The notes: generated by a model not told the origin, from the sequence alone. Counted from the first letter of the stretch, positions 1 through 22,758 are shown. The stretch: 64,000 bases of DNA from Candidatus Marinacidobacterales bacterium (GCA_965224085.1 CBDCYI010000009.1:416001-480000), one strand, 5' to 3'. Made by a program: numbers and translations.

Positions 1-1331
1 ACGACTTCGACGTCGGCCAAGGCCATGATGTTGAAAAGAGGGTCGCCGTTGACGACGATGATATCCGCGATCTTGCCCACTTCGATAGTTCCCAAATCGT
101 CTCTGCGCCCCAGGATCCGTGCATTGACTCGAGTGGTCGCCGAGATGGCCCGTTGGGGGCTCATGCCCAGATCTACGAAGGCCTTGATCTCTCGCCACAA
201 CGCTTCCGTATGGAAGTTCAACGGGGTGCCGGAATCCGTGCCCATGCCCACGACCGCGCCCGAATCGATCCACTGCTTGAGCGAGGCGTCGCCAAACAAC
301 ATCTGCCGCGGTGTCGTGGAGAAGTATCGAAGGGTATGCCAGTTCTCGAAGCTGTTCTGCACCTCCTCGTAGATCTCGGGCGGGAAATCCCTCTTCAGCT
401 GCGGGTCCTGCAAGCGCTCCGGAAACGCGACCGTCGCCGGAAACACCCATACGCGATGCGCTCCAGTGACGACGACCGGCCTCCCGCTCACAACGATGTC
501 TTCGAGGAGCTCCGCATCGTAGGGGGGTGTGCCGGCGGAGCCCACGTGCTGCAGCACGTCCACCCCGGCCTCGAGTGCGTCTCGAACTGCCTGAGGACTG
601 TAGACGTGCGCGTGCACTCGAATGTCGTACCGGTGCGCTGCCTCCACGATGGCCTCGTAATGCGCTCGGTTCAGGCCGGCCCAGGCCTTGATGACGTCGA
701 CGCCCGCCTTGGCCAGATCCTCGGTGGCCTTCCCGGCCTCCTCGGGCGTTTTGATCCCGATCTGAGACTCGGCCGGAAAAATAGGCCAGACGCGTCCCGT
801 CACCCAAGCGCCACTCATCCACATTCTAGGGCCAGGGATCTCGCCGCGGTTGATCCGATCTCGCACCGTGATGCTATCGTCGAGCGTCGCCCCCAAATCC
901 ACCGCCGAGGTCACGCCGGCCATCAGCAACTGTCGAGCTGAGATCTCCATGACCTGCTGGATAGGTGTCCCGGTTTTCTCAAGCCAGGGGAACCAGGTGG
1001 CATAGTCACCGTGGCCCAGGATCATGAGGTGAGCATGTAGGTCGATGAGTCCCGGCAGCATCGTCCGGCCCTGCGTATCGATGACGGTGTAGCCTTGCGG
1101 GATCTCGATCTCGGGGGCCCTACCGACGGCGACAATACGGTCGCTCTCGATGAGAACGGCCGCGTTGTGGAGCGGCGGTACCTCATATCCATCCAGCAGC
1201 ATGCCGCCCACGAGGGCGAGCTTGCTGTTTGGCTGCGCCGACGCTGCGCCTGCGAACACTATCAGCGAGACGGCCGCGGCCAGGAGCGTACCTGCCATTG
1301 GGAACGAGACCCGGCTTTTGCTTCTGTTCAT
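1..1331 (-). CDS. Secreted metal-dependent amidohydrolase, paralog A1 (3' end runs off the window)
   Basis: Absent from the ORF track because it has no stop in the window. Read manually: ATG at 1331 after GGAGAG, MNRSKSRVSF... signal peptide, LALVGGMLLDGYEVPP, DLHAH, IKA, HAH, QH, GTDSG and IIVVNGDPLFNIMALADVEVV, matching the other paralogs. Confidence 0.9.
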   Translation of the reverse strand, partial: MNRSKSRVSFPMAGTLLAAAVSLIVFAGAASAQPNSKLALVGGMLLDGYEVPPLHNAAVLIESDRIVAVGRAPEIEIPQGYTVIDTQGRTMLPGLIDLHAHLMILGHGDYATWFPWLEKTGTPIQQVMEISARQLLMAGVTSAVDLGATLDDSITVRDRINRGEIPGPRMWMSGAWVTGRVWPIFPAESQIGIKTPEEAGKATEDLAKAGVDVIKAWAGLNRAHYEAIVEAAHRYDIRVHAHVYSPQAVRDALEAGVDVLQHVGSAGTPPYDAELLEDIVVSGRPVVVTGAHRVWVFPATVAFPERLQDPQLKRDFPPEIYEEVQNSFENWHTLRYFSTTPRQMLFGDASLKQWIDSGAVVGMGTDSGTPLNFHTEALWREIKAFVDLGMSPQRAISATTRVNARILGRRDDLGTIEVGKIADIIVVNGDPLFNIMALADVEV

Positions 1332-1529
1332 TTTTCTCTCCATGAGGTGCCCTCCGCTCGTCTGCGCGCGGATCCCTCGACGAGATCGAGCAGCTCCCGG
1401 TCGATGGGAGCCAGATTTCGTATGGCCCTGAGATCGTTGATGCATTTGCAGAGGCTCGCCGACGTTCGTGCGCCCCCGTGTGCTCGAGGCCCTCGGGCTT
1501 GTCGTGCTGCCACTAATTGTCGCCATCGA

Positions 1530-1720
1530 TGTCGAAGCCCAAGCTACGGGCGAGAGTCCGAATGTGAACGCCCACGCGGATCGTTTTGTTCGTTCGATAA
1601 AACATGAACGCCTCGAACGGATGGTTCCGCTCGGGGAGAATATTCTTCGCACGGTTGTTCGCGCTTACGCCGCCCATGACAACCACCAAGGTCTCGACAG
1701 CGGGCTGGTCTTCCCAGTGC
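1530..1720 (+). pseudogene. Integrase-core (rve-like) transposase remnant
   Basis: ESPNVNAHADRFVRSIKHERLERMVPLGENILRTVVRAY..HDNHQGLD resembles the C-terminal part of integrase-core transposases (SPnxNayaERFVrSIKxEcL...rNHQGL). It has no N-terminus and appears to have an internal deletion. Confidence 0.65.
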
Positions 1721-1772: not shown

Positions 1773-3218
1773 CTACCGGCCGGTCGGCCCGCCCTTGTAG
1801 ACGACGCCGTCCTTGACGACCACTTCCACGTCGGCCAGCGCCATGATGTTGAACAGCGGATTGCCCCGCACCACGATGATGTCGGCCAGCTTGCCCGGCT
1901 CGATCGTCCCGAGGTCGCTCCCTCTGCCCAGGATCCGCGCGTTGATGCGCGTCGCCGCCGAAATGGCGCGCTGCGGCGACATCCCCATGTCCACGTGCGC
2001 CTTGATCTCCCGCCACAGTGCCTCGGTGTTGAAATTCGCTGGAGAGGGGTCGGTGCCCATGCCCATCACCGCGCCCGCTTCGATGAACTGCTTCAACCCG
2101 CGCTCGCGGAAGAACATCTCCCGGTCAACCCGCTGAAAGTAGCTGATCGTATGCCACTGCTCGAGCGAGGACTGCACTTCCTCCCATAGGCCGGGTATCG
2201 CGGCGAAGTCTTCCTTCAGCTGGGGGTCCTGCAGCCGTTCCGGAAACCCCACCGTGGCCGGAAAAATCCACGAACGGTGGGTGGCGGTGATCACCACCGG
2301 CCGCCCCGCGTTCACGACGTCGCGAATCAGCTCCGGAGTGTACGGCGGCGTGGTCCCGGCCGAGCCCGTATGCGTGAGGACGTCCACTCCGGCCTCGAGC
2401 GCGTTGCGCACGTCCTGCTCGTCGTACACGTGCGCGTGCACCCGGAGGTTGTGGCGATGCGCCGTCTCGAGGATCGCCCGGTAGTGCGCGGGCGTGAGGT
2501 TCGTGTATGCCTTGATGACGTCGACGCCTGCCCGGGCCAGTTCGTCGGTAACGCGCGCGGCGTCTTCGGGCGTGTCGATCGTCCCCGGCGGGTAGGCCCA
2601 CCACTCCTCGCCGGATCGAAACGGGCGCTTCTGGTTCCCCATCTGCGGATCAGGTCTCCCGAACGAGCCACGGAGCTCGATGTCGCCGCTTATCTCACCC
2701 TTCCGCGGGATCACCAATCCGGCCATCCACAGCCGCGGCCCCGGAATCTCGCCGCGGGCGACCCGATCGCGCACTCGCAAGCTCTCTTCGAGCGGCGACC
2801 CGAGATCGACCACCGAGGTAACGCCGGCCCTCAGCAGCTGTTTGGCCGACAGCTCCATGACGGCGTCCAGGACGTCTCGCTCGCGCACCCACTGCCACCA
2901 GCGCGGGTAGGCCGAGCCGAGCAGCGACAGATGGCCGTGCAGGTCGATGAGGCCCGGTAGCATGACCCGTCCTCTCGTGTCGATCACCGTCGCGTCCGAC
3001 GGAATCGTGGCCTCGGCGGCCCGGCCCACCCAGACAATCGTGTTGCCTTCGATGAGCACCGCCGCATGGTGCAGCGGCGGCACCTCGTAGCCGTCCAGGA
3101 GCATGCCGCCCACCAGCGCCACGCGCGTGGGCGTCTGCGCCCGCAGCTCCGCTGGGGTGCCAAGCAGCACGAGCGCCAGCACGACAACACCGTATGCGTA
3201 GTTTTTCGTGACTCTCAT
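1773..3218 (-). CDS. Secreted amidohydrolase, paralog A2
   Basis: ATG 3218 after GAGGGAGAG. Signal peptide ending ELRA|Q; DLHGH, IKA, HAH, TH and GTD metal-ligand motifs. The ORF-track start at 3422 is over-extended. Confidence 0.9.
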   Translation of the reverse strand: MRVTKNYAYGVVVLALVLLGTPAELRAQTPTRVALVGGMLLDGYEVPPLHHAAVLIEGNTIVWVGRAAEATIPSDATVIDTRGRVMLPGLIDLHGHLSLLGSAYPRWWQWVRERDVLDAVMELSAKQLLRAGVTSVVDLGSPLEESLRVRDRVARGEIPGPRLWMAGLVIPRKGEISGDIELRGSFGRPDPQMGNQKRPFRSGEEWWAYPPGTIDTPEDAARVTDELARAGVDVIKAYTNLTPAHYRAILETAHRHNLRVHAHVYDEQDVRNALEAGVDVLTHTGSAGTTPPYTPELIRDVVNAGRPVVITATHRSWIFPATVGFPERLQDPQLKEDFAAIPGLWEEVQSSLEQWHTISYFQRVDREMFFRERGLKQFIEAGAVMGMGTDPSPANFNTEALWREIKAHVDMGMSPQRAISAATRINARILGRGSDLGTIEPGKLADIIVVRGNPLFNIMALADVEVVVKDGVVYKGGPTGR

Positions 3219-3252: not shown

Positions 3253-4617
3253 CTAACGGCGCGCCGGCCCACCCTTGTAGACGACGCCGTCCTTGACGAC
3301 CACTTCCACGTCGGCCAGCGCCATGATATTGAACAGCGGATTACCCCGCACCACGATGATGTCGGCCAGCTTGCCCGGCTCGATCGTGCCCAGATCCTGC
3401 CCGCGGCCGAGAATGCGAGCACCGATGCGCGTTGCGGCCGAAATCGCCCGCTGCGGCGACATCCCCATGTCCACGTGCGCCTTGATCTCCCGCCACATCG
3501 CCTCCGGATTGAAGTTCATCGGCGAGCCCGAGTCCGTCCCGATGCCCAGCACGGCGCCGGCCTCGATGAACTGCTTCAGCCCCCGCTCCCGAAAGAACAT
3601 CTCGCGGTCGACCTGCTGGAAGTACCCGAGCGTGTGCCAGTGCTCGAACGACTTCTGCACCAGCTCCCAGAGGCCGGGCTCGGCGCCGAAGTCGGCTTTG
3701 AGCTGTGGATCCTGTAGCCGCTCCGGGAAGTCGACCGTGGCTGGGAAGATCCACGTCCGGTGTGTGCCGGTGACGACGACCGGTCGCCCGGCGTTAACGA
3801 TGTCGCGAATCAGCTCCGGAGTGTACGGCGGGGTGCGCCCGGCTGAACCCGCATGGGTCAGCACGTCCACGCCGGCTTCGAGCGCGTTCCGCACGTCTTT
3901 TTCGTCGTACACGTGCGCGTGCACAAGGAGGTTGCGGCGATGTGCGGCCTCGACGATCGCCTGGTAATGCGCCGGCGTCAGGTTCGTGCGCACCTTGATG
4001 ACGTCCACGCCCGCTCCGGCCAGTTCCTCGGTGATGCGCGCGGCGTCTTCGGGCGTATCGATCCGGTCCGGGTGGACTGCCGGCCACGCGTTCGGGCCGG
4101 GAGGGCCGCCCCGCTGAATGACGAACCCGCTCACGAACAGCCGCGCCCCCGGGACCTCGCCCCGCGCGACCCGTTCGCGCACGTTGAGACTCTCCTCGAG
4201 CGGTCCACCGAGATCGACGACCGAAGTGACGCCGGCCATCAGGAACTGCCTGGCGGAGATCTCTATGACTCGCTCCATCAGGCCTTTCTCGGCCGCCCAT
4301 TCCCACAAGGGCGCGTACTTCGACCCCAGGTGCATCAGGTGCGCGTGCAGCTCGATCATCCCCGGCATCATCACGCGACCTCTGGTGTCGATCACGGTGG
4401 CGTCGGGCGGAATCGTGGCCTCGGCGGCGCGGCCAACCCACTTGATGGTGTCGCCCTCGATAAGCACGGCCGCATGGTGCAGCGGCGGCACCTCGTACCC
4501 GTCCAGCAGCATCCCGCCCACGAGCGCCAGCTGCTCGGGCGCCTGCGCCCACAGCTCCGCTGACGCGCCCGCCAGAACGAGCGTCCACGCAACGATGATA
4601 TTCGCGCGTCTTTTCAT
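3253..4617 (-). CDS. Secreted amidohydrolase, paralog A3
   Basis: ATG 4617 after GGAGG. MKRRANIIVAW signal peptide; ELHAH, IKV, HAH, TH and GTDSG motifs. The ORF-track start at 5109 is over-extended. Confidence 0.9.
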   Translation of the reverse strand: MKRRANIIVAWTLVLAGASAELWAQAPEQLALVGGMLLDGYEVPPLHHAAVLIEGDTIKWVGRAAEATIPPDATVIDTRGRVMMPGMIELHAHLMHLGSKYAPLWEWAAEKGLMERVIEISARQFLMAGVTSVVDLGGPLEESLNVRERVARGEVPGARLFVSGFVIQRGGPPGPNAWPAVHPDRIDTPEDAARITEELAGAGVDVIKVRTNLTPAHYQAIVEAAHRRNLLVHAHVYDEKDVRNALEAGVDVLTHAGSAGRTPPYTPELIRDIVNAGRPVVVTGTHRTWIFPATVDFPERLQDPQLKADFGAEPGLWELVQKSFEHWHTLGYFQQVDREMFFRERGLKQFIEAGAVLGIGTDSGSPMNFNPEAMWREIKAHVDMGMSPQRAISAATRIGARILGRGQDLGTIEPGKLADIIVVRGNPLFNIMALADVEVVVKDGVVYKGGPARR

Positions 4618-5237: not shown

Positions 5238-6158
5238 ATGGACGGTCGTAGAGGCTCCGGCTCGTGGTGGCACGCCGTGGTGTTGTCCGGGTTTTTGCTG
5301 GTGTGCCTTACTCCAGGACATGCCGCGGCGCTCCAAAACACCGTTAAGGGCCGAGTTACTGACGAGGACGGCAACCCTCTCGAAGGCGCCGCCTGTACCT
5401 TCACGCAGCGGGCTCAAAATTTGACGGTCCGGGTCAAGTCCGGCAAGGACGGACGTTTCCTCCGAGCGGGGATACGGAGCGGCCAGTACCGCATCGTCTG
5501 TGAGCTTACCCGATACGCCCACGAGCCCATGGTCACTCAGATTGGAGGCGGGGGCACGGGTTCACTCGAGTTGCGGATGGTCAAGACGGAATCCACCTAT
5601 TACGAGGAGGGATTTCAGGCGTTCTCCGACGGGCGCTTCGAGGAGGCTGTCTCTCTGATGAAGCTTGCCTTGGCCGACGACCCCGACGACGCCCGAGCAG
5701 AATACATCTTGGGCCTCAGCCTAACCGATCTGGGGAAGTACGACGAAGCGCTGGAGCATCTGACGCGTGTGGCAAGCTCTGAAAGCGAGCTGGCGACGAG
5801 CGCCATGCTCAACCTCAGCCTCGGCCAGACGTACCTCCTGATGGGCGATGAAGAGACTGCCGAGAAATACATCCAGAAAGCGGGTAACCCCGCGGCGATA
5901 TCCTCCATGGTTGCCAACGCCGGGACCTGGGCCTTCAACCGCGGACAGTTGGAAAAGGCGGAACGGTATTTCCAGAGGGCACTCCAGGCGAACCCACAAA
6001 ATGTGGACGCGTTATACGGCCTCGGCGTTTGCCACATCAAGGCCAAGCGGACAGATGAGGCCTTGGAAGTCCTCAAAACCCTCCTCTCGACCGCGCCGGA
6101 GCACGAAAAGGCGAAACAAGCGGAAGTTCTCGTCAAGAAGCTCGAAGCTGAACGCTAG
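5238..6158 (+). CDS. Exported protein: carboxypeptidase-regulatory-like domain plus TPR repeats
   Basis: Signal peptide; VKGRVTDEDGNPLEGA...SGKDGRF Ig-like motif; TPR motifs (AEYILGLSL..LGKYDEALEHL; ALYGLGVCH); RBS AAGGAG. Confidence 0.85.
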   Translation: MDGRRGSGSWWHAVVLSGFLLVCLTPGHAAALQNTVKGRVTDEDGNPLEGAACTFTQRAQNLTVRVKSGKDGRFLRAGIRSGQYRIVCELTRYAHEPMVTQIGGGGTGSLELRMVKTESTYYEEGFQAFSDGRFEEAVSLMKLALADDPDDARAEYILGLSLTDLGKYDEALEHLTRVASSESELATSAMLNLSLGQTYLLMGDEETAEKYIQKAGNPAAISSMVANAGTWAFNRGQLEKAERYFQRALQANPQNVDALYGLGVCHIKAKRTDEALEVLKTLLSTAPEHEKAKQAEVLVKKLEAER

Positions 6159-6367: not shown

Positions 6368-7696
6368 TTACCTGAAACTCAAGTCGCTATAATTTCTTCC
6401 GCCGACCATCAAGAAGTTCACGTTCCTCAAATCCCGGATGTTTTCGTCAGGCTTTCCCTGTATGGATATGATATCCGCGTATTTTCCCTTCTCGATGGTT
6501 CCTACATCGGCATCGATTCCGACGACCTGCGCGTTGATCCCAGTGGCAGCAGTAATCGCCTCCAAAGGGCTGAAGCCGGCTTTGACGAGGTTCTCCATTT
6601 CGAGCGCCATTAGACCATGCATGCTGTCCGTTCCGATGCCAACGAGGACCCCTTTTTCCTTCGCTCTTTTCAGCTGGCTCCAACGTTGCTTGACGCGACT
6701 GGCCCTTCGTTCGCTTTCGGCAATCGCTTCCTGATGAACTTTTGCGCATCTGTCGATCCACGCCTCGATACTCCGGGCCTCGTTGTCCAAAAACTCCCAT
6801 TCGTCGAATACCCTTTGGAAGCCGATCGTATACGTGTTCACGAATCCAACGCTCCGGTCCACCAAAAGATTCATAAGATCTTCATTGAGCCCTCCCCCGT
6901 GCTGGATCGAATCGACACCGGCTTCCACCGCCAGCCGAATCGACTCGCCGTTTGCGTGCGCCGTCGCTTCTATCCCGAGGCGGTGCAGCTCACCGATGGC
7001 TGCCTCGATCTCTTCCGTCGTATAGTTGGACTCTCCCGGGGCGTAGGGTGTACCGGTGTTCGGGCCGACCCGTGCCCGATCGGTGACCGTCAGCTTCATG
7101 TGGTGAGCGCCCATCTCGTAATTTTTGCGGACAAAGACCCTCATCTCCCAAGGCCCATTTGTCGTTCGATACTCGGCGGGTCCATGACCAGCGGTAGTCG
7201 AAATAAAGTTTCCGCTTGGGTAGATCCGAGGACCCGCAATAATTCCGTCATCCACCGCTTCGCTGGCATGTATGTCGTTGTAGTGGACTTCGCCCACAAC
7301 GTAGAGGCTGGTTACACCTGACAGCAGTTGCACCCGTATATCGCGAACGATTCGTGCCATTTGTTTGGCGTCAGCCTGGGTCATGCCCTCGAGCTGGCCT
7401 TGCAAAGTGCGGGTATCTGGGCGAATGGACAAGTGAGCGTGGGCGTCCACGATACCGGGCATCACAGTCTCCTGGCTCAGGTCTATGATTCGTGCCCCCT
7501 GGGGAACGGAAATGGCCCTTCCCACCGCCTCGATGCGATCTCCTCTAATAATGATGACGGCATTCTCGACCGCAGGCGCCCCCGAACCGTCAATCAACCG
7601 ACCTGCCCGGATCGCCGTCACTTCTTGCCCACTGACCATTGCCGTGCAAAGAATGAGGACGGAACTCAGCAAGAAAGATCCAGTCATGATTCGCAT
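6368..7696 (-). CDS. Secreted amidohydrolase (Xaa-Pro dipeptidase/imidazolonepropionase-like), divergent from A1-A6
   Basis: AIRAGRLIDG, MPGIVDAHAH, MKL, AHA, IQHG, GTDS and GTIEKGKYADII motifs; signal peptide; RBS AAGGAGAGG. Confidence 0.9.
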   Translation of the reverse strand: MRIMTGSFLLSSVLILCTAMVSGQEVTAIRAGRLIDGSGAPAVENAVIIIRGDRIEAVGRAISVPQGARIIDLSQETVMPGIVDAHAHLSIRPDTRTLQGQLEGMTQADAKQMARIVRDIRVQLLSGVTSLYVVGEVHYNDIHASEAVDDGIIAGPRIYPSGNFISTTAGHGPAEYRTTNGPWEMRVFVRKNYEMGAHHMKLTVTDRARVGPNTGTPYAPGESNYTTEEIEAAIGELHRLGIEATAHANGESIRLAVEAGVDSIQHGGGLNEDLMNLLVDRSVGFVNTYTIGFQRVFDEWEFLDNEARSIEAWIDRCAKVHQEAIAESERRASRVKQRWSQLKRAKEKGVLVGIGTDSMHGLMALEMENLVKAGFSPLEAITAATGINAQVVGIDADVGTIEKGKYADIISIQGKPDENIRDLRNVNFLMVGGRNYSDLSFR

Positions 7697-9730: not shown

Positions 9731-9895
9731 CTTAGTGACTTAACTAACTAGTACCCGTCCTGACAGGTGTAAGAGGTTGAGAAAAAAGGGGTAATCGCAA
9801 ATTTAGGGCTAGCCTTCTGAGGGAGTGTCGTTTAGTATCGAGTCGACAAAAACGCAGATTCTAAACGACTTAACTCCAAAGGAGACCAGCCCTAA

Positions 9896-14846: not shown

Positions 14847-15259
14847 ATGCCGGTCACGCGCCGCAGGTTTCTCACGGCGGCCGGCGTGATACCTCCCTTC
14901 GACGATCTCACCTCCTCTGACCGGGCCGGCGGCCAGCTTCTCGAGGAAAGCTTCGAAAGCGGAACGAGGCCGAGATCGTGCTGACCCTCGTCGGGGATTT
15001 TTACCTGATGAGGGAGTTTCCCGATCATGAGGAGGCCGCCGCGGAACAGGGTTTTGACCTGTTCCCAGGGTCGCACCTTGCCTTCATAAGCCTCGGGAAC
15101 GGTCTTTCCACGGCGGAGGCGAGTGGGTTTCCGAGCGTCGATTGGGGAGGCGGTCTGCGGGTCCCGTCGCTTCGCGGCCACCCCTCGTTCGTCAAAGAGC
15201 TGACCTGGTCCGGTGTCAACGCCGTTGCGCTTGCCAACCATCACCCGGGAAACACATGA
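14847..15259 (+). pseudogene. Truncated, frameshifted 5' copy of the CapA-family gene at 17078
   Basis: Homologous to about 17078-17505 (TRRRFL, LTLVGDFYLMREFPDHE, SLRGHP, NAVALANH), with deletions. Confidence 0.85.
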
Positions 15260-15276
15260 AATGGCAGGTTAGTGAG

Positions 15277-15409
15277 GACATGGTCGTGGTAGGGTAACCC
15301 GCTGTTCAACATCGTGGCGCTGGCGGACGTGGAAATCGTTGTCAAAGACGGAGTCGTGTACAAGGGCGGTCCCGGAGGCCGGGGGCGGGTGACCGAGAGC
15401 GAGCCATAA
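15277..15409 (+). pseudogene. Orphan 3' end of an A4-like amidohydrolase
   Basis: Encodes GNPLFNIVALADVEIVVKDGVVYKGGPGGRGRVTESEP*, nearly identical to the A4 end at 16809-16925. The downstream spacer is also shared. Confidence 0.85.
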
Positions 15410-15548: not shown

Positions 15549-16925
15549 ATGAGGAGAGAACTTAGGCGCCTATGGCTGTCTCCGTTGATGGTGTTCATCT
15601 CGGTGGCCGCCATTCAGGCTCAGCCGACGAAGAAGCTAGCGCTTGTTGGCGGGATGCTGCTGGATGGGTACGAAGTGCCACCGGTACACCATGCCGCCAT
15701 CCTGGTTGAAGACAACAAGATCGTCGAAGTCGGGCGCGCCGCGGAGATGACCATTCCGCCCGACGCCACGGTGATTGACACGCGCGGCCGGGTGATGATG
15801 CCGGGGCTCATCGAGCTCCATGCACATCTGATGCTCCTCGGGCATGGGAACTACGCGCGGTGGTTCCCGTGGCAAGCGGAGCAGGGGCTCGGCGAGCGCA
15901 CGATGGAGATCTCCGCCAAGCAGTTGCTGATGGCGGGAATTACCTCGGCGGCGGATATCGGAGGTCCGCTGAAGGAGAGCTTGAGCGTCCGCGACCGCAT
16001 CAACAAGGGGGAGATTCCGGGGCCGCGGATGTGGATGAGTGGCCCCTGGATCTCAACCACACCCTGGCGGCTTGGGGGTTTGTCCATGACGTGGCCGGGC
16101 ATCGAGACCCCGGAAGACGCGGCACGGGCGACGGAGGAGCTAGTGAGAGCGGGTGTCGATCTGATCAAGGGGCAAAGTGGCCTGTCCTTCGAGTACTACA
16201 AAGCCATGGTCGAGGTAGCGCACAAACACGGCTTGAAGGTCCACGCGCACGTGAACATGCCGCAGGAGGCGCGCGACGCGGTCGATGCCGGGTGCGATGT
16301 CCTGACCCACGTCGGCTACGACAGGCCGGCTTACGATCCCGAGCTGGTGAAGGACATCGTGGTGAAGGGTATTCCCGTCAATGTCACGGCAGCCTTCCGC
16401 GCCTGGGTGTTTCCGGCGACGATTGATTTTCCGGAACGGCTCCAGGACCCACAGCTGAAGAAGGACTTCGGGCCCGAGATTTACCAAGAGGTGCAGGATT
16501 CCTTCAAGAGCTTTCATACGCTGAGCTACTTCCGCACCACCAGCGAGCGGGAGATGTTGTTCAGAGAAGCCTCTGTGAAGCAGTGGATCGATTCCGGGGC
16601 GGTGGTCGGCATGGGCACGGATTCCGGAACACCCATGAACTTCCATACCGAAGCGCTGTGGCGGGAGATGAAGGCGTTCGTCGATCTCGGGATGTCGCGG
16701 CAGCGGGCCATTTCTGCGGCGACGCGCATCAACGCGCGGATCCTGGGCAGAGGGAGCGACCTCGGGACGATCGAGGCGGGCAAGCTGGCGGACATCATCG
16801 TGGTGAAAGGCAACCCGCTGTTCAACATTATGGCGCTGGCGGACGTGGAAGTCGTTGTCAAAGACGGGGTCGTGTACAAGGGCGGTCCCGAAGGCCGGGG
16901 GCGGGTGACCGAGAGCGAGCCATAA
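15549..16925 (+). CDS. Secreted amidohydrolase, paralog A4
   Basis: ATG 15549 after GAGGAGG; signal peptide IQA|Q; ELHAH, IKG, HAH, TH and GTDSG motifs. Confidence 0.9.
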   Translation: MRRELRRLWLSPLMVFISVAAIQAQPTKKLALVGGMLLDGYEVPPVHHAAILVEDNKIVEVGRAAEMTIPPDATVIDTRGRVMMPGLIELHAHLMLLGHGNYARWFPWQAEQGLGERTMEISAKQLLMAGITSAADIGGPLKESLSVRDRINKGEIPGPRMWMSGPWISTTPWRLGGLSMTWPGIETPEDAARATEELVRAGVDLIKGQSGLSFEYYKAMVEVAHKHGLKVHAHVNMPQEARDAVDAGCDVLTHVGYDRPAYDPELVKDIVVKGIPVNVTAAFRAWVFPATIDFPERLQDPQLKKDFGPEIYQEVQDSFKSFHTLSYFRTTSEREMLFREASVKQWIDSGAVVGMGTDSGTPMNFHTEALWREMKAFVDLGMSRQRAISAATRINARILGRGSDLGTIEAGKLADIIVVKGNPLFNIMALADVEVVVKDGVVYKGGPEGRGRVTESEP

Positions 16926-17077: not shown

Positions 17078-18376
17078 ATGCCGTTCTCACGCCGCAGGTT
17101 CCTCGAGGCCACCGCCGCGGGCGTGATACCTCCCGTCGCCGGAATCACCTCCTCTGGCCGGGCCGGCGGCCAGCTTCCCGGGGAAAGCTTCGAAAAGCTC
17201 CGAAAGCGGAACGAGGGCGAGACCGTGCTCACCTTCGTCGGGGATTTTTTCCTGATGAGGGAGTTGCCCGATCACGAGGCGGCCGAAGCCGAACAGGTTT
17301 TCGACCTGTTACGAGAGTCGGACCTTGCCTTCGCAAACCTCGAAAACGGCCTTTCCACGGTCGGTTCGCCAGAGGCGAGCGGCTTTCCCAGCGTCGACTG
17401 GGGGGGCGGCTTGCGCGGCCCGTCGCTGCGCGGCCACCCCTCGCTCGTCAAAGAGCTAACCTGGGCTGGTGTGAATGCCGTTTCGCTGGCCAACAATCAC
17501 ACGGGAAACTACGGTCGAGACGCGCTCCTGGAAACCATGACGACGCTGGACGGAGCCGGCATCCGCTACGCCGGCGCGGGACGGAACGTGGAGGAAGCTT
17601 TTGCGCCTGCATACCTCAGCGTGGGCGGCTTGACCGTGGCATTTCTATCTCTCTACAGCTATTACTACCAGTATGGTGCGGACGAGGTCGCAAGCTCGAC
17701 CGAGGCCGGTGTCGCCTCCTCGCGGACCTTTGATGTCCTGCTGCAGGTGCCCTCGGGTCTCGAGAGCAGGTATGTGAATCCGAACCATGACGATCCGCCC
17801 TACCAGCTTGGTCTCCAGCCGGGCGGCTCGCACGCCGTGTTGGCTCCACTCAAGGAAGATATCGATCGCATGAGGGACGCGATCTCCCAGGCCCAGGCCC
17901 GAGCGGATTTCACTATCTTGTCGGTGCACTTGCACTGGGGCCGGAGCGGCAAGCATGACCTCCCCTTTCAACAACGGGTGCTGGTCCAGGCGGCAATCGA
18001 CGCGGGCGTGGACCTCTTCGTGGGGCATGGCCCCCACGTGCTGGGGGGAGTGGAGACCTTTCGCGGAAAGGCCATTGCTTACAGTATGGGGAACTTCATG
18101 CTCTCACGCGCGAGCGCGCCCGAGCAGAGCGGGAAGCTCTCGTGGGCTGCCCTAGAAGGGCAGCCCACGCGCCAGAGCGTGGTGCTGCGAGCAACGGTGA
18201 AGAAGAAAGAGGTCGTTGCCCTCGAGCTTCTGCCCATTGTGATTGGCGCCGACGGCCGACCGCGCTTCGCGAGGGGTGCGGGCGGTCAGCGCATCGTCCA
18301 AAAGCTCATCGGTCTCTCTGCTCAACTTGGAACCGAGATAGAAGAGACGGACTGGTTTGGGAACGTCCGTGTATGA
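17078..18376 (+). CDS. CapA/PGA_cap family metallophosphoesterase-fold protein with Tat signal
   Basis: SRRRFLE twin-arginine motif; VGD, ANLE, SLANNHTGNYG, HLHWG, GHGPHV and YSMGNF motifs. Confidence 0.9.
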   Translation: MPFSRRRFLEATAAGVIPPVAGITSSGRAGGQLPGESFEKLRKRNEGETVLTFVGDFFLMRELPDHEAAEAEQVFDLLRESDLAFANLENGLSTVGSPEASGFPSVDWGGGLRGPSLRGHPSLVKELTWAGVNAVSLANNHTGNYGRDALLETMTTLDGAGIRYAGAGRNVEEAFAPAYLSVGGLTVAFLSLYSYYYQYGADEVASSTEAGVASSRTFDVLLQVPSGLESRYVNPNHDDPPYQLGLQPGGSHAVLAPLKEDIDRMRDAISQAQARADFTILSVHLHWGRSGKHDLPFQQRVLVQAAIDAGVDLFVGHGPHVLGGVETFRGKAIAYSMGNFMLSRASAPEQSGKLSWAALEGQPTRQSVVLRATVKKKEVVALELLPIVIGADGRPRFARGAGGQRIVQKLIGLSAQLGTEIEETDWFGNVRV

Positions 18377-18425: not shown

Positions 18426-19793
18426 ATGCGAGTAACGATTCGACGAATGTGGATGTTTGTATTTGTTTTTCTGTTCTCCGTTGCAACGCTGTTGGCGCAG
18501 CCGAAAAAGCTGGCACTCGTGGGCGGCATGCTCTTGGACGGGTACGACGTGCCGCCCGTGCACCACGCCGCGATCCTCATCGAGGGCAACAAAATCGTAG
18601 AAGTGGGACGCGCCGCCGAAATGAGTATTCCAAGCGACGCCACGGTGATCGACACCAGCGGCCGTGTGATGATGCCCGGTCTCATCGACCTCCACGCGCA
18701 TTTGATGATCCTGGGGCACGGGAACTACGCGCGGTGGTTTCCCTGGCTCGCCGAGCACGGAGCGCAGCGAGTGATGGAGGTCTCCGCCAAGCAATTACTG
18801 ATGGCTGGCATCACTTCAGCGGTCGATCTGGCCGGTCCACTGGAGGAGAGTCTCGCCGTGAGGGACCGAATCAACAGGAATGAGATCCCCGGCCCGCGCA
18901 TGTGGATGAGCGGCCCTTGGGTCACGCGTTCTTTGGGCCGCTATCCTCCCGTGCCTGCGTTTCAGATCAAGGCGGAGACCCCGCAAGAGGCTGCCGCCGC
19001 CACGGAGAGGCTGGCAGAGGCCGGAGTCGACCTGATCAAGGCCTACCCCATGAGCTTGGAATCCTACAAGGCTGTCGTAGAAGCTGCCCACAAGCACAAC
19101 CTGAAGGTGCACGCCCACGTTTACCGTCCCCAAAACATCCGCGATGCAGTGGATGCTGGGGTCGACGTTCTCACTCATGTCGGCTCAGCCGGAAACCCCA
19201 CCTATCCCCCAGAACTGGTGAAGGATATCGTCGTGAAGGGGATTCCGGTCAACGTCACCGCGGCGCACCGGGTGTGGGTGTTTCCGGCGACCGTCGATTT
19301 CCCGGAACGTTTGCAGGACCCGCAGCTCAAGAGGGACTTCCCACCGGACATTTACGAGGAGGTCGAGAACTCTCTCGAGAACTGGCACACCCTGCCCTAC
19401 TTCCAGACGTCCGACCGGCAGATTTTCTTTGGGAAAGCGGCGCTCAAGCAGTGGGTTGATTCTGGCGCCGTCATGGGAATGGGCACAGATTCGGGAACAC
19501 CGATGAATTTCCACACTGAGGCTCTGTGGCGCGAGATCGTCGCACACGTGGATGTAGGCATGTCTCCCGAGCGAGCCATCTCCGCCACAACGCGGATCAA
19601 TGCACGGATCCTGGGGAGGGGAAGCGACCTGGGCACCATCGAAACTGGCAAGCTGGCCGACATCATCGTGGTGAAGGGAAATCCCCTGTTCGACATCATG
19701 GCCTTGGCGAACGTCGAAGTCGTTGTCAAGGACGGGGTCGTTTACAAGGGCCGCCCTGGCATCGGGAAACGACGACCGACCAGCGCGCAATAA
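18426..19793 (+). CDS. Secreted amidohydrolase, paralog A5
   Basis: ATG 18426 after GGAGGAGGGGAG; signal peptide LLA|Q; DLHAH, IKA, HAH, TH and GTDSG motifs. Confidence 0.9.
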   Translation: MRVTIRRMWMFVFVFLFSVATLLAQPKKLALVGGMLLDGYDVPPVHHAAILIEGNKIVEVGRAAEMSIPSDATVIDTSGRVMMPGLIDLHAHLMILGHGNYARWFPWLAEHGAQRVMEVSAKQLLMAGITSAVDLAGPLEESLAVRDRINRNEIPGPRMWMSGPWVTRSLGRYPPVPAFQIKAETPQEAAAATERLAEAGVDLIKAYPMSLESYKAVVEAAHKHNLKVHAHVYRPQNIRDAVDAGVDVLTHVGSAGNPTYPPELVKDIVVKGIPVNVTAAHRVWVFPATVDFPERLQDPQLKRDFPPDIYEEVENSLENWHTLPYFQTSDRQIFFGKAALKQWVDSGAVMGMGTDSGTPMNFHTEALWREIVAHVDVGMSPERAISATTRINARILGRGSDLGTIETGKLADIIVVKGNPLFDIMALANVEVVVKDGVVYKGRPGIGKRRPTSAQ

Positions 19794-19835
19794 TTTGAAA
19801 GCTCAGTGTACCGCGGCGGTTCCAGTAGCGTTGGG

Positions 19836-19967: not shown

Positions 19968-21362
19968 ATGCATGGAGAAACGAGGCGATCATGGTTTTTG
20001 CTACTCGTGCTAATGGTGGTCTGCGTGGCGGCAGCGCAGGCCCAGCCGGCGAAAAAGTTGGCGCTGGTGGGTGGCATGTTGCTGGATGGATACGAAGTAC
20101 CGCCGCTTCATCACGCCGCGGTTTTGATCGAGGGGAACAAGATCGTGGAGGTCGGGCGCGCTGCCGAGATCACCATCCCCGCTGACGCGACGGTGATCGA
20201 TACGCGCGGCCGAACGATGCTGCCGGGGCTCATCGAAGCTCATGCCCACATGGGGCTTCTCGGGCACGGCAACTACGCCAGGTGGTTCCCGTGGAAGCGC
20301 GAGCACAACCTCGAGGAACGGGTGTGGGAGATCTCGTCGAAGCAATTCATCAACGCCGGAATCACATCTGCAATCGACCTGGGAGGTCCTCTAGATGTTA
20401 GTCTCCGCGTCCGCGATCGGATCAACCGGGGAGAACTCGTCGGACCGCGCTTGCTGGTAAGCGGCCCTATGTTGAGAGGTGGGGAAGAGGCCATGCCCGG
20501 GATGGGCAAGGTCGATACCCCGGAAGCCGCGGCAAGGAACGCCGAGGCGTTGGCGAAGGCCGGAGTGGATGTCATCAAGGCCCAGATTGGCATCAATGAT
20601 GAGCTCTACGTAGCCATCGTCGAGACGGCCCACAAGTACGGCAAAAAGGTTCACGCACACGTTTACTTCCCGGATAAAGTCAAAGCCGCTCTCGATGCCG
20701 GCGTGGACGTCTTAACGCACGTGGGATCCGCCGGGACGCCCCCATACACTCCCGAGTTGATGAGGGAGATTGTGGTAAGCGGACGCCCCGTGGTGCCCAC
20801 CGGTGCGCACCGGGTGTGGGTGGTCCCAGCCACGATCAATTTTCCCGAGCGTCTCCAAGACCCACAGCTGAAAGAATATTTCGGACCCATGATTTACGAG
20901 GAGGTACAGGATTCTTTCAAGAACTGGCATACGCTACCGTATTTTGGGCCGCTCATCGGTCTCGGTGACACGCCTCGACAGATGTTCTTCGGCGACGCAT
21001 CTCTGAAGCAGTGGATTGACTCCGGTGCCGTGGTAGGAATGGGCACCGATTCCGGAACGCCGATGAACTTCAATACCGAGGCGCTCTGGCGCGAAATGAA
21101 GGCTTTCGTCGACCTGGGCATGTCTCCTCAGCGAACCATATCGGCGGCGACCCGTATCAACGCGCGCATCATGGGAATGGGGCGCGAGCTTGGAACCATC
21201 GAACCGGGAAAGCTCGCCGACATCATCGTCGTCAAAGGCGACCCCTTGTTCAACATCATGGCACTTGCCGATGTCGAAGTAGTCGTAAAGGACGGCGTTG
21301 TGTTGAAGGGCGGCCCCGGATCTGCCAGGCGACCAACATCCGATGGCGGATTTTGTAACTGA
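19968..21362 (+). CDS. Secreted amidohydrolase, paralog A6
   Basis: RBS GAGGAGG; signal peptide AQA|Q; EAHAH, IKA, HAH, TH and GTDSG motifs. Confidence 0.9.
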   Translation: MHGETRRSWFLLLVLMVVCVAAAQAQPAKKLALVGGMLLDGYEVPPLHHAAVLIEGNKIVEVGRAAEITIPADATVIDTRGRTMLPGLIEAHAHMGLLGHGNYARWFPWKREHNLEERVWEISSKQFINAGITSAIDLGGPLDVSLRVRDRINRGELVGPRLLVSGPMLRGGEEAMPGMGKVDTPEAAARNAEALAKAGVDVIKAQIGINDELYVAIVETAHKYGKKVHAHVYFPDKVKAALDAGVDVLTHVGSAGTPPYTPELMREIVVSGRPVVPTGAHRVWVVPATINFPERLQDPQLKEYFGPMIYEEVQDSFKNWHTLPYFGPLIGLGDTPRQMFFGDASLKQWIDSGAVVGMGTDSGTPMNFNTEALWREMKAFVDLGMSPQRTISAATRINARIMGMGRELGTIEPGKLADIIVVKGDPLFNIMALADVEVVVKDGVVLKGGPGSARRPTSDGGFCN

Positions 21363-21495
21363 CGACAAGGAAGCTCAGGCTGTTGGATCAATATATTAGA
21401 TATTAGCGGAGCCTAGCTCCACATTGGCCTGGGGTCACCGTTTTGCGCGGCTCCAGGCCCGCTTAGATTCTATGTGAATACTCAAGGAGGGTTAT

Positions 21496-22758
21496 ATGCG
21501 AATCCCGCGATTCGTTTTGATGGCGGTTTTCATCTCTTCCGCATTTGCCGGCGCCCAGCAGGCTCCTACCGTGCTGAGCGTCACCACCGTGCTCGACGGG
21601 AGGGGTGGCATCGTCCGAGATACCAAGCTCGTCGTCGAAGGATCGCGGATCGTGGCAATCGATCCGGATGCCCAAGGCGTTACTTATGACCTCACCGGCC
21701 TCACCGTGATGCCTGGTTGGATTGATACACACGTTCACAGCAACCATCACTTCGATCGAGAGACGGGTAGAGCCCAGTTCGGGGGCGCCCCGTCCGAGGC
21801 GGACGAGGCCCTGCGGTGGGCTTCACAGGGGGCACTCTACGAGATGCAGAACCTTTACGCGACGCTCATGGCCGGCTTCACCACGGTGCAGAGCCTTGGG
21901 TCGTCCCGTTTCGATATCGACTTCCGCGATTGGATTGCCGAGGGCAGGATACCGGGCCCCAGGCTTCTGACGTGCATTCGACCGGTCCGCGAAACGACTG
22001 GCAGTCCCGACGAGATCCGGGCGTTTGTGCGGCAACTAGTTGCCGAGGGCGCGGACGTCATCAAAATTCGAGCTACCGCCAGCATCCGTGACGGCGGCGC
22101 TCAGACGATGACCGATGAGCAGATCCAAGCTGCTTGCGGCGAGGCAACGGTTCTGGGAAGGCGTTCGGCCGTTCATGCGCAGGCACCCGAAGGCGCCAAA
22201 GCGGCCGTCCTCGCCGGTTGCACCACCATCGAGCACGGGAACCGGCTGACCGACGAGGTCCTGGATCTGATGGTCCAGCATGGGACGTACCTCGATACCC
22301 ACAATGGAATACTGCTCCACAACTACCTTGAGAACAAGCACAGGTATCTCGGCATCGGCAACTGGGACGAGGAAGGCTTTGCCTACATGGAAAAGGGGGT
22401 TGCCATCGGGATCGAAACATTCGAGCGGGCTTTGAGAAAGGACGTGAAGATTGTCTTCGGAACCGACGCGGTTGCGGGTATCCACGGACGGAATTTCGAG
22501 GAGTTCGTCTATCGGGTGCGCGACGGCGGACAAGATCCAATGGAGGCCATCGTAAGTGCCACCTCGCTCGCGGCAGAGTCGCTAGGCATGCAAGACAAGA
22601 TTGGCACAATTGCACCCGGTATGGAGGCTGATATCATTGCCCTCGACGGCGATCCACTGCGGGATATCACAGCCGTCCGGCGAGTCGTCTTTGTCATGAA
22701 GGGCGGTAGGATATTCAAGAATGAATCCCTGAACGTCGGCGACAAGGTTAGTGAGTGA
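21496..22758 (+). CDS. Secreted amidohydrolase (Xaa-Pro dipeptidase-like), divergent
   Basis: RBS AAGGAGG; MPGWIDTHVH, IKI, VHA, IEHG, FGTDA and GTIAPGMEADII motifs. Confidence 0.9.
   Translation: MRIPRFVLMAVFISSAFAGAQQAPTVLSVTTVLDGRGGIVRDTKLVVEGSRIVAIDPDAQGVTYDLTGLTVMPGWIDTHVHSNHHFDRETGRAQFGGAPSEADEALRWASQGALYEMQNLYATLMAGFTTVQSLGSSRFDIDFRDWIAEGRIPGPRLLTCIRPVRETTGSPDEIRAFVRQLVAEGADVIKIRATASIRDGGAQTMTDEQIQAACGEATVLGRRSAVHAQAPEGAKAAVLAGCTTIEHGNRLTDEVLDLMVQHGTYLDTHNGILLHNYLENKHRYLGIGNWDEEGFAYMEKGVAIGIETFERALRKDVKIVFGTDAVAGIHGRNFEEFVYRVRDGGQDPMEAIVSATSLAAESLGMQDKIGTIAPGMEADIIALDGDPLRDITAVRRVVFVMKGGRIFKNESLNVGDKVSE

Follow-up and report, generated by a model that had tools for sequence, protein, structure and literature searches.

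Predicted exported amidohydrolases beside an outer-membrane transporter in a marine acidobacterium

Why would a marine acidobacterium encode nine metal-dependent enzymes for amide cleavage, all predicted to be exported, next to a transporter of the outer membrane, and why is this arrangement seen again in related bacteria? The window analysed here is a stretch of 64,000 nucleotides. A sequence-only reading of it had recognized six close amidohydrolase paralogues, two more distant amidohydrolases, a PGA_cap gene with a twin-arginine (Tat) signal and a single TonB-dependent transporter (TBDT). Pfam searches and alignment confirmed each of these. The 23 kb region includes six paralogous Amidohydro_1 genes (A1-A6), the distant B1 and B2, a D-aminoacylase-like gene, the PGA_cap gene (CapA) and one TBDT (Table 1).

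Two clusters separated by an insertion sequence

The earlier view that these genes form a single 23 kb locus did not hold. The region is two neighbouring clusters with at least five transcription directions. An insertion sequence (IS) lies between the two and has, on our reading, brought them next to each other; in the reference genome (L001), which is 98% identical to the window, the two halves sit ~9.3 kb further apart. The left-hand cluster comprises A3-A2-A1, a TPR gene, B1 and the D-aminoacylase-like gene. The genes of the right-hand cluster all run in one direction (TBDT, CapA remnant, A4, CapA, A5, A6, B2, GWxTD), and IS copies and synteny breaks flank this cluster. The ISNCY transposase is split over two frames (9896-11035 and 11095-11643), and the left end given for the element (9880) is approximate. 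This element, the CapA pseudogene, the TPR and GWxTD genes and the frameshift towards the 3' end of the D-aminoacylase-like gene were absent from the sequence-only reading. The GWxTD/TPR gene is also found downstream of the cluster in genomes L002-L006.

Table 1. Features of the region and its right-hand border, in window coordinates
Feature	Coordinates	Strand	Basis
A1, A-clade amidohydrolase, predicted exported; C-terminus cut by window edge	3..1343	-	Pfam Amidohydro_1 9e-31, alignment, signal-like N-terminus
A2, A-clade amidohydrolase; long insert in loop after strand β3	1773..3218	-	Pfam, alignment; tree sister of A3
A3, A-clade amidohydrolase; recent duplicate of A2	3253..4617	-	Identity to A2
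Predicted exported protein, CarboxypepD_reg domain and TPR repeats; divergent from A3	5238..6158	+	Pfam, hydrophobic N-terminus
B1, distant cog1228-type amidohydrolase, predicted exported	6368..7696	-	Pfam 3.6e-32; NF051886 228 bits vs cutoff 500
D-aminoacylase-like Amidohydro_3 protein, predicted exported, possibly lipoprotein	8056..9735	+	Pfam, PDB matches
ISNCY-family insertion sequence	9880..11638	+	NF033593 317 bits, DUF772, synteny break vs reference genome, repeated 3' part
TBDT, Oar/SusC-like architecture	12005..14815	+	Pfam, AF2, Foldseek
CapA pseudogene, ~155 N-terminal codons including Tat motif; frameshift and stop	14847..15286	+	tblastn, nucleotide identity
A4, A-clade amidohydrolase; protein chosen for modelling	15549..16925	+	AF2 pLDDT 89.4; Foldseek matches 2p9b, 2qs8, 3mtw
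CapA/PGA_cap family protein, twin-arginine signal	17078..18376	+	PF09587 182.5 bits vs 27
A5, A-clade amidohydrolase; recent duplicate of A4	18426..19793	+	Identity to A4
A6, A-clade amidohydrolase	19968..21362	+	100* clade in tree
B2, distant cog1228-type amidohydrolase	21496..22758	+	Pfam; NF051886 232 bits vs cutoff 500
GWxTD-domain and TPR protein, abuts B2, same direction; true start may be internal	22759..24960	+	Pfam, TIGR04514
Partial second IS copy (3' part, 99.8% identical)	25776..26323	+	Just past right-hand synteny break at 25196

Among Pfam and NCBIfam matches there was no inner-membrane transporter or regulator in the window's cluster, and the closest regulatory genes, for a histidine kinase and a sigma-54 activator, lie at 43698-46274. 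A promoter and terminator scan gave nothing above chance, so operon structure is read from spacing and orientation. In keeping with a peptide or amide diet, the window also encodes two pairs of M16 peptidases, one gamma-glutamyltranspeptidase (GGT) and one PD40-amidohydrolase fusion.

A tandem duplication of a CapA-A unit is evident in the right-hand cluster. The CapA pseudogene matches CapA at 71% over 116 aa (tblastn) and at 80.6% of nucleotides over its first 432 nt, and it is present in the reference genome as well. The Tat motif of the intact protein reads RRRFLE. Partner genes of the CapB/CapC type define the poly-gamma-glutamate synthesis system; none was found when genes across the window were searched with Pfam. 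A conserved association with CapA had been expected, but the gene is adjacent in just one of seventy-three loci from other species, and any role for CapA in the system is one that we infer.

The D-aminoacylase call was upheld in part. The protein matches 1RJP/1M7J over its full length (E of the order of 1e-78: 5e-78 to 8e-78) and 3gip at 1e-70. However, the eight residues VTGNCGIS of 1RJP/1M7J fall in an alignment gap, and the Cys-bearing GNCG is absent both from this protein and from its orthologues in L001, L002, L005 and L006. We take the cysteine of GNCG, which follows strand 2, to be a zinc ligand of the Alcaligenes D-aminoacylase. The frameshift, near 9604, swaps out the last 41 conserved residues, and the frame is intact in L001. 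Assignment to the NCBIfam subfamily PRK09061 was rejected (188.5 bits against a cutoff of 340).

The TBDT consists of a signal peptide, a CarboxypepD_reg domain, an ETVTVTG segment, a plug and a barrel, in that order. Its barrel matches OMP_b-brl_4 (PF25183) at 198 bits against 30, with older Pfam models below their gathering scores (Plug PF07715, 20.9 vs 23.9; TonB_dep_Rec PF00593, 21.4 vs 27). ETVTVTG (residues 121-127) may correspond to the TonB box, whose consensus ahead of the plug it resembles; E122, T125 and V126 are invariant or nearly so in 106 sequences, and the segment is modelled at pLDDT <50. A sequence search of the PDB with this protein found no TBDT. The AF2 model (pLDDT 88.1, pTM 0.86) has a plug-in-barrel fold, and every PDB match listed by Foldseek is a TBDT (best 4e-34, TMt 0.70).

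The A-clade and its variable loop

A1-A6 are mutually 63-78% identical (63-69% to A1). The six match Pfam Amidohydro_1 at E values of 1e-30 to 1e-35, and together with B1 and B2 they score 107-127 bits against a gathering cutoff of 25. Alignment of A1-A6 bore out the near-invariant termini noticed earlier (LALVGGMLLDGY and IIVVxGNPLF...VEV). The HxH/K/H/H/D metal ligands, which the sequence-only reading held to be kept, likewise do not vary among A1-A6 or across 123 sequences of the clade (H91, H93, K207, H232/H234, H254 and D358, assigned by HMMER alignment to 2p9b), and the same motifs were read by eye in B1 and B2. Export signals had been proposed for all the hydrolases; by a crude hydropathy test, nine of nine have a basic-then-hydrophobic N-terminus, as do 114 of the 119 clade sequences that carry the motif.

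The A4 model (pLDDT as in Table 1) is a (β/α)8 barrel with a flanking β-sandwich domain, and the ligands lie at its strand ends, with HxH following β1, the Lys β4, the two further His β5 and β6, and the Asp β8. Foldseek matched it to 2p9b, 2qs8, 3mtw, 3n2c and 3be7 with E values of 1e-33 to 1e-28. The best solved relatives, by sequence and by fold, are 2p9b, 2qs8, 3mtw and 3be7 (TMq 0.70-0.73, 22-26% identity); their titles include 'possible prolidase' (2p9b), Xaa-Pro dipeptidase (2qs8) and Cc2672 L-Lys/L-Arg carboxypeptidase (3mtw). We rejected A1-A6 as NF051886 Xaa-Pro dipeptidase equivalogs (154-171 bits against a cutoff of 500). Judged from sequence, A1-A6 are part of a large clade of cog1228/MEROPS M38 amidohydrolases without characterised members. 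The clade is widespread, with >5127 proteins at E<=1e-20 among 8000 scored candidates. The locus had been put forward as an undescribed system, and a literature search indeed found no description of the A-clade or of its TBDT link.

A gene tree rejected the lineage-specific expansion that had been suggested, as the six paralogues do not form one clade (AU test, p 4.7e-51). The array mixes old subfamilies with two recent duplications (A2/A3 and A4/A5) and is not a lineage-specific burst. A1, which has an alternative start at 1331, stands alone in the tree near the marine clade. In L022 and L023 the final A gene ahead of B2 is, by position, the orthologue of A6; a gene of L025 groups with A6 too, but the L025 contig ends at that gene.

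Sharp divergence in the loop after GPRxWMSG, described from the sequence, proved real: across 123 sequences this is the most variable segment of the mature protein (2.05 bits of entropy against a mean of 0.85). Variability after HxH is also present but moderate rather than sharp (0.5-1.35 bits, same sequences). In the A4 model the loop directly follows barrel strand β3, which by topology would put it on the catalytic face, in keeping with the active-site position suggested for the variable segments. Recent duplicates have diverged here, with a loop identity of 18-19%. A2 and A3 are identical at 340/438 positions (78%) outside the loop and at 9/51 inside it, and A4 and A5 at 323/436 (74%) and 4/21. 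Orthologues at similar overall divergence keep the loop (17/20, 19/21 and 18/19 positions identical). Among groups, too, it is conserved between orthologues and different between paralogues.

Transporter linkage and proposed function

The sequence-only proposal of a TBDT-amidohydrolase link found support in other genomes, where the link recurs and is positionally concentrated. Among seventy-three loci from other species, a TBDT was directly adjacent in fourteen, within two to three genes in nine and not within three genes in fifty, counts that are not independent because the loci are phylogenetically related. By gene slot, TBDTs occupied 42/678 positions at offsets -5 to +4 and 0/335 further out. 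The A-adjacent TBDTs make up at least four groups, with <40% identity between groups; the window's group shows 24-27% identity to those other TBDTs that could be aligned. TBDT adjacency shows thirteen state changes on the tree. The link is frequent, not obligatory. TBDTs orthologous to the window's (49-62% identity) stand at the head of A arrays in L022, L023, L047 and L048. In L022 and L023 the array ends in B2, whereas in L047 and L048 its 3' end is cut off or is without B2; B2 is the last gene of the array in other genomes too. In distant Acidobacteriota the combination of TBDT, A array and B2 is conserved as a module. Of 120 TBDT homologues listed, 14 have a longest contig exactly equal in size to that of a listed A4 homologue, which hints indirectly at co-location.

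In relatives, PQQ-dependent dehydrogenases are the most frequent neighbours; they occur within two genes of an A gene in 29/73 loci, a pattern that a simple peptide model leaves unexplained. GMC oxidoreductases recur near A genes as well, and the inner-membrane transporter CstA does so in 12/73 loci. Together with CstA, further neighbours speak for a peptide or amide context: GGT, peptidases of families M24 and S15, penicillin amidase, amidase and a class IV aminotransferase.

We put the probability at roughly 0.55 that the TBDT imports and that clustered binuclear-metal amidohydrolases then hydrolyse peptides or amides in the periplasm. Small peptides, or other compounds with amide links, would cross the outer membrane through the TBDT, and the exported cog1228/M38-type enzymes would cleave them, presumably in the periplasm. 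Going by characterised relatives, the enzymes may be carboxypeptidases, dipeptidases or N-acyl-amino-acid deacylases. N-acyl, D-amino-acid or gamma-glutamyl compounds, the substrates put forward in the sequence-only reading, are candidates here. The loop after β3 would set the specificity of each paralogue, and the left-hand cluster would add more enzymes of the same kinds. The system probably scavenges peptides or similar amides. A more specific version, periplasmic salvage of peptides with D-amino acids, for instance those of cell walls and necromass, strikes us as quite improbable. There the TBDT would import the peptides, CapA, with a peptide C-terminal epimerase as its one solved relative, would invert or expose the C-terminal residue, and the A array, as a set of C-terminus-specific enzymes, and the Cys-less D-aminoacylase-like enzyme would trim either chirality; if so, the relatives' class IV aminotransferase (the D-amino-acid type), GGT and CstA would complete uptake.

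Other readings have to be weighed against import and hydrolysis. It is unlikely that the substrates, in place of peptides, are sugar acids (N-acylated or amide-linked) or further small oxidised compounds, processed jointly with dehydrogenases of the periplasm in the manner of the ong cluster. Such substrates would fit the PQQ-dependent dehydrogenases and GMC oxidoreductases, and the D-aminoacylase-like protein matches the sugar-acid de-N-acetylase OngB (9kb1, E 2e-52), an enzyme of the kind that ong, as described in PMC9537276, pairs with a TBDT. The window's clusters, however, lack PQQ and GMC genes, sugar kinases and glycoside hydrolases, D-aminoacylases outscore OngB (266 against 181 bits), and the top solved A-clade relatives, by sequence and fold, carry the names prolidase, Xaa-Pro dipeptidase or arginine carboxypeptidase. 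It is unlikely, too, that the clustering has come about without functional coupling, through tandem duplication and IS rearrangement that gathered generic periplasmic amidohydrolases beside an unrelated TBDT in a genome rich in exported peptidases, TBDTs and IS. The synteny breaks, the CapA-A duplication and the fifty loci with no TBDT nearby would fit such a history, but the concentration of TBDTs near A genes, the several TBDT lineages involved and the module kept in distant Acidobacteriota argue for coupling.

An outward-acting, Oar-like TBDT that releases the neighbouring amidohydrolases as exoenzymes we regard as very unlikely. Its domain architecture is that of the Oar subclass (PMC6434023), the linked genes encode proteins with Sec signals that would reach the periplasm first, and the cluster is without an inner-membrane importer. 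Yet SusC-type importers share this architecture, which according to the same paper dominates in Bacteroidetes, all Foldseek matches listed are importers, and CstA in relatives' loci fits uptake; as far as that account goes, popC is not described as adjoining oar. Degradation of xenobiotics or toxins, the role of ochratoxinase, molinate hydrolase and phenylurea hydrolase on the same branch, is highly improbable. The ochratoxin-detoxifying ADH3/LlADH, molinate hydrolase and phenylurea hydrolase B are among the PDB relatives, but at 21-25% identity they are no closer than the peptidases, and the size and spread of the clade, with A genes near housekeeping and peptide-metabolism genes, fit a general nutritional role.

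Comparison with known systems

The region had been called PUL-like. As in a Bacteroidota PUL (SusC/SusD), a TBDT with an N-terminal CarboxypepD_reg domain accompanies a set of exported hydrolases, and SusC levan and dextran transporters are among the TBDT's fold matches. Here, however, the enzymes are amidohydrolases. No SusD-like protein was found among the Pfam and NCBIfam matches of genes in 1-25000, nor any carbohydrate-active enzyme or dedicated regulator by Pfam in the same interval, and because these and an inner-membrane transporter are lacking from the cluster, 'PUL-like' stands as an analogy and not as a strict PUL.

In the Fus system, as described in PMC5095587, PMC6071955 and PMC7593965, the TBDT FusA is coupled to the periplasmic M16 protease FusC, which acts in proteolysis of the imported cargo. 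By fold, the window's TBDT matches YddB (6ofr, 4e-34) and its relative FusA (4zgv, 5.6e-34) best, although sequence identity is only 13% and their lead over siderophore receptors (1.4e-30) is small. Fus is described as iron piracy with an M16 partner, whereas the partners here are amidohydrolases. The ong cluster of Pseudoalteromonas, for oxidised chitooligosaccharides, combines a TBDT with OngB of the D-aminoacylase family, whose structure matches the window's D-aminoacylase-like protein (PMC9537276). That account places the OngB step under intracytoplasmic catabolism, while the window's protein has an export-type N-terminus, and the GH20, kinase and deaminase genes of ong have no counterpart in the window. 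Myxococcus xanthus Oar is reported to be needed for secretion of the PopC protease from the periplasm (PMC6434023). Its CarboxypepD_reg-plug-barrel order, as described there, is that of the window's TBDT, but Oar acts in export and PopC is said to be without a signal peptide, unlike the window's hydrolases with their signal-like N-termini.

For CapA, the only PDB relatives are entries of MslH (E 5e-24), a lasso-peptide C-terminal Trp epimerase with a PGA_cap/calcineurin-like fold. Six of the seven MslH key residues inside the alignment (list from PMC10406935) are kept (E44, N87, H88, H259, H261, H295); Asp91 aligns with Asn, and Asp11 lies outside the alignment. Unlike MslH, the window's CapA scores 98 bits against an NCBIfam cutoff of 700, is predicted to be Tat-exported and is not in a lasso-peptide cluster.

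The A-clade itself has the fold and the HxH/K/H/H/D ligands in common with solved cog1228/M38 enzymes (Cc2672 3MTW, Sgx9260b/c 3MKV, 3N2C/3FEQ, 3BE7, 2QS8, 2P9B), and characterised members are described as cleaving Xaa-Pro dipeptides and N-acyl-prolines (PMC11511702). It differs from them in its low identity and in scoring below the equivalog cutoff, as given above, and in the β7-β8 region (A4 residues 256-342), which has no sequence alignment to 2p9b, is ~25 residues longer and holds a near-invariant FPERLQDPQLK motif. Unlike the solved enzymes, the A genes stand in arrays of three to six paralogues and are linked to TBDTs.

Two gene clusters in the window

Mapping of the window rests on an ORF listing combined with Pfam and NCBIfam scans. 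It identified six paralogous Amidohydro_1 proteins (A1–A6), two distant cog1228-type amidohydrolases (B1 and B2), a TonB-dependent transporter (TBDT) and a PGA_cap family protein (CapA). A2–A6 are 63–69% identical to A1, and in the alignment N- and C-terminal blocks are near-invariant across the six. The export signals claimed for every hydrolase in the sequence-only reading were recovered: judged by the hydropathy of the N-terminus alone, all nine hydrolases begin with a basic-then-hydrophobic segment, as do the TPR protein and the TBDT. CapA carries an N-terminal RRRFLE twin-arginine motif.

Features of the array and its immediate surroundings, in window coordinates
Feature	Position	Strand	Remark
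A1	3-1343	-	cut at window edge
A2	1773-3218	-	
A3	3253-4617	-	
CarboxypepD_reg + TPR protein	5238-6158	+	
B1	6368-7696	-	
D-aminoacylase-like Amidohydro_3 protein	8056-9735	+	
ISNCY-family insertion sequence (IS)	9880-11638	+	transposase split in two frames
TonB-dependent transporter (TBDT)	12005-14815	+	
CapA pseudogene	14847-15286	+	between TBDT and A4
A4	15549-16925	+	
CapA (PGA_cap)	17078-18376	+	
A5	18426-19793	+	
A6	19968-21362	+	
B2	21496-22758	+	
GWxTD + TPR protein	22759-24960	+	

At 98% identity the window matches OZ240210.1, a chromosome of 9.2 Mb titled 'Candidatus Marinacidobacterales bacterium'. Window positions 1–10954 and 11639–25196 correspond to two loci in this reference (L001 and L008), and contig ranges and BLAST coordinates place these halves about 9.3 kb further apart there than in the window. 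Synteny breaks at 10954/11639, coinciding with the IS, and again at 25196. The final 547 bp of the IS reappear at 25776–26323 with 99.8% identity, just past the second break and beyond the GWxTD gene; the reference also has, on the far side, a fragment of an integrase. Since synteny breaks at the IS and the halves are further apart in the reference, what had been read as a single 23-kb locus is two clusters. Genes of the left cluster run in at least four transcription directions; those of the right cluster are all co-directional, with 0–174 bp between them after A4. Scans of 11000–26000 found 0 promoter-like sites against 4.0 expected and 14 terminator-like sites against 13.6 expected; with counts at chance, they are uninformative on operons. 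In the reference, the sequence to the left of the window's start encodes DUF4178, DUF350, a serine recombinase, an amine oxidase and a SIS protein, so the array ends at A1.

For the D-aminoacylase-like protein, 1rjp/1m7j match with E ~1e-78; it and its exported orthologues lack an eight-residue GNCG stretch. Within 9596–9735 the frame changes right after ...TYTDPHRY, near 9604, and the conserved 41-residue C-terminus continues in the other frame to about 9730. The frame is intact in the reference, so the gene either became a pseudogene recently or carries an assembly indel.

Outside the array, exported peptide-processing genes lie at 33437–36689, 37710–39401, 46264–49158 and 53145–56363. They comprise two M16 peptidase pairs, a gamma-glutamyltranspeptidase (GGT) and a 1073-aa PD40 (TolB-like) amidohydrolase fusion, a type that also recurs close to A genes in soil Acidobacteriota. 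Elsewhere, at 59309–59914 and 60645–61415 and at 51389–52348 and 57385–59211, are ankyrin-repeat proteins, one carrying a TonB C-terminal domain as a fusion, and two more DDE transposases. The window as a whole is IS-rich.

An old array of differentiated enzymes

Among solved structures A4 comes closest in sequence to 2p9b ('possible prolidase'), 2qs8 (Xaa-Pro dipeptidase), 3mtw (Cc2672 carboxypeptidase) and 3be7; its sequence matches also include amidohydrolases that degrade ochratoxin, as well as molinate and phenylurea hydrolases. Modelled with AF2 (pLDDT 89.4), A4 matches the same relatives in fold, with TMq 0.70–0.73 at 22–26% identity. All 123 clade sequences keep the ligands H91, H93, K207, H232/H234, H254 and D358, confirming the HxH/K/H/H/D set noticed earlier; in the model these residues sit at the ends of strands β1, β4, β5, β6 and β8. 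Passages of a review (PMC11511702) describe characterised members of this branch as hydrolysing Xaa-Pro dipeptides and N-acyl-prolines, with aminoacylases among them. Against the nearest NCBIfam equivalog, the Xaa-Pro dipeptidase NF051886, A1–A6 score 154–171 bits with a cutoff of 500; they form a separate subfamily. Between β7 and β8, A4 residues ~256–342 (window ~16314–16574) are helical, about 25 residues longer than in 2p9b, and unalignable by sequence to 2p9b and the other solved relatives. This region holds the near-invariant motif FPERLQDPQLK and may form a clade-specific lid or binding element.

The clade is large, with more than 5127 proteins at E<=1e-20 among 8000 candidates scored, many of them 60–73% identical to A4. 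Their source names are only 'amidohydrolase family protein' or 'imidazolonepropionase-like amidohydrolase', an Atlas search with A4 returned only generic amidohydrolase clusters, and neither the clade nor its TBDT linkage was described anywhere in our literature searches.

Sequence variability had been placed both in a loop and in the helix after HxH. The first holds: A4 172–184 is the only long mature stretch above the smoothed-entropy cutoff, averaging 2.05 bits against 0.85 overall in the 123 sequences. The segment after HxH varies only moderately (0.5–1.35 bits). The whole loop spans residues 164–187 (block mean pLDDT 65 for 171–180) and directly follows strand β3 (160–163), which by strand topology puts it on the barrel face bearing the ligands. 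Within orthologue groups the loop is conserved as well as or better than the rest of the protein (18/19 vs 389/434, 17/20 vs 330/442 and 19/21 vs 347/440 identities). Between the window's recent duplicates it has diverged far more than the rest: A4 and A5 share 4/21 loop residues against 323/436 elsewhere, and A2 and A3 share 9/51, counting A2's long insert, against 340/438. A loop with subfamily-specific function would be expected to show this pattern.

The main A tree has 105 rows, with L001 and L008 left out and six fragments skipped; a 40-row IQ-TREE gave the same overall picture. A4 and A5 are sisters in the larger tree (support 97) and lie unresolved within one fork in the smaller. A2 and A3 cluster with L061 and with the gene adjoining a CapA in L023. 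A6 groups with the final A gene ahead of B2 in two other arrays (L022 and L023) and with the last gene of the short L025 contig (support 100), and A1 stands alone near a marine clade. Constraining the six paralogues as one clade cost 196.5 log-likelihood units (AU p 4.7e-51), so the lineage-specific expansion that had been marked for testing is rejected. Scattered as they are, A1–A6 form an old, differentiated array, with two recent duplications in the window lineage. The CapA remnant upstream of A4 keeps its Tat motif and 71% protein identity over 116 residues, interrupted by a frameshift and a stop, and shows that one of these duplications copied a two-gene [CapA-A] unit in tandem. The pseudogene is also present in the reference (L008 6454–6765).

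Neighbours of the A genes in other genomes

One scan of species-representative genomes gave 75 loci, or 73 after excluding the two from the window's own species. They were annotated with a GC3-guided ORF picker, phmmer labels against the window proteins, and Pfam for recurrent neighbour families. The 73 loci are mutually related, so locus counts are not independent trials. A TBDT lies directly beside an A gene in fourteen and within two to three genes in nine; the other fifty have none within three genes, several of them being contigs of only 4–7 kb. Around 88 A genes, TBDTs fill 42/678 slots at offsets -5 to +4 and 0/335 further out, with a peak immediately upstream (12/86). The expected association with a TBDT in relatives is borne out, in 23/73 loci within three genes. 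Mapped onto the A tree, closeness to a TBDT marks 23 tips, is absent at 49 and is not scorable at 14, with 13 state changes required; the link is thus frequent but repeatedly lost or gained. In metagenomes, 14 of the 120 TBDT homologues among the matches listed have a longest contig of exactly the same length as that of a listed A4 homologue, an indirect hint of co-location. Mere clustering of genes is a live alternative to a functional link.

A-adjacent TBDTs fall into at least four groups less than 40% identical to one another: thirteen members from marine and Vicinamibacterales loci, six in the window's group, and two singletons. A further six-member group lies two to four genes from an A gene. 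The window TBDT is 24–27% identical to aligned TBDTs outside its group. Its orthologues (49–62% identical) head A arrays in L022, L023, L047 and L048; B2 closes the first two, the L047 contig ends after its last A gene, and no B2 follows in L048. In the soil acidobacterial array of L023, one A gene (5445–6885) consists of two overlapping ORFs (HMM positions 11–163 and 164–452), a frameshift or pseudogene; the TBDT, A genes and B2 of this array are otherwise conserved. Four MAG records (L046, L047, L048 and L065) titled 'uncultured Bifidobacteriaceae bacterium' encode outer-membrane TBDTs, and their A-clade arrays nest among Acidobacteriota; the label looks wrong.

CapA had been expected to accompany the array in relatives. 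It adjoins an A gene in only one of the 73 loci (L023) and lies within 10 kb in four more; given this rarity and the absence of partner genes, a poly-gamma-glutamate role was set aside. CapA's solved relatives in the PDB are MslH entries only; MslH epimerises the C-terminal residue of a peptide in a Ca-dependent manner (PMC10406935). Of the seven key MslH residues covered by the alignment, CapA retains six and has Asn opposite Asp91; on the NCBIfam model it reaches 98 bits, with a cutoff of 700. We treat the likeness only as a lead.

The commonest neighbour is a PQQ-dependent dehydrogenase, within two genes of an A gene in 29/73 loci (many of L002–L007 and L030–L067), full-length (PF01011 E 1e-191 for a representative) and often alongside a TBDT and a GGT. 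The window's own clusters contain none. GGT lies within two genes in seventeen loci and fills 16/85 slots immediately downstream; a CstA transporter occurs in twelve, each time immediately upstream. Further recurrent neighbours are M24 and S15 peptidases, penicillin amidase, amidase, GMC oxidoreductase, class IV aminotransferase and PD40-amidohydrolase fusions. In the marine cluster of L002, L005 and L006 (~1450–4616), a class IV aminotransferase (D-amino-acid/branched-chain type) and an M24 peptidase lie upstream of the TBDT, and a two-gene GMC oxidoreductase separates the two A genes. In these three loci a D-aminoacylase-like gene and a GWxTD gene are conserved downstream.

Function and comparison with known systems

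We read the region as a module, linked to a TBDT, for hydrolysing amides or peptides in the periplasm, with a probability of roughly 0.55. The earlier observations were largely right, and their interpretation is partly supported. Peptide hydrolysis leaves the PQQ-dependent dehydrogenase neighbours unaccounted for, which motivates a live rival in which the substrates are not peptides and may be sugar acids; the ong cluster for oxidised chitin (PMC9537276) is a precedent.

Direction of transport is a separate matter. The TBDT scores just below threshold with the classical Pfam models (plug 20.9 vs 23.9, barrel 21.4 vs 27) and 198 bits with the newer barrel model PF25183. A PDB sequence search gave a sole, irrelevant match to the N-terminal domain. 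Its AF2 model (106 sequences, pLDDT 88.1) matches only TBDTs among the matches listed, best E. coli YddB (6ofr, 4e-34) and the ferredoxin receptor FusA (4zgv, 5.6e-34). Rfam and tRNA scans of the window returned zero matches, so Rfam offers no riboswitch clue to the cargo. The domain order CarboxypepD_reg, plug, barrel is that of SusC-type importers and equally that of Myxococcus Oar, which a passage in PMC6434023 describes as required for secretion of the protease PopC. Being common to both, the architecture leaves direction undecided, and export through the TBDT is a live rival to uptake.

The clade matters because its thousands of members have only generic annotation, and its arrays offer a natural experiment in which one loop may retune specificity after duplication. 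Soils and oceans hold abundant Acidobacteriota, whose diet is poorly known. The region is not a polysaccharide utilisation locus in the strict sense, having no SusD, CAZymes or regulator. If TBDT-fed periplasmic amide hydrolysis is correct, it would assign a role to some of the very numerous Oar-type TBDTs in Acidobacteriota and constitute an organic-nitrogen uptake route parallel to polysaccharide utilisation loci.
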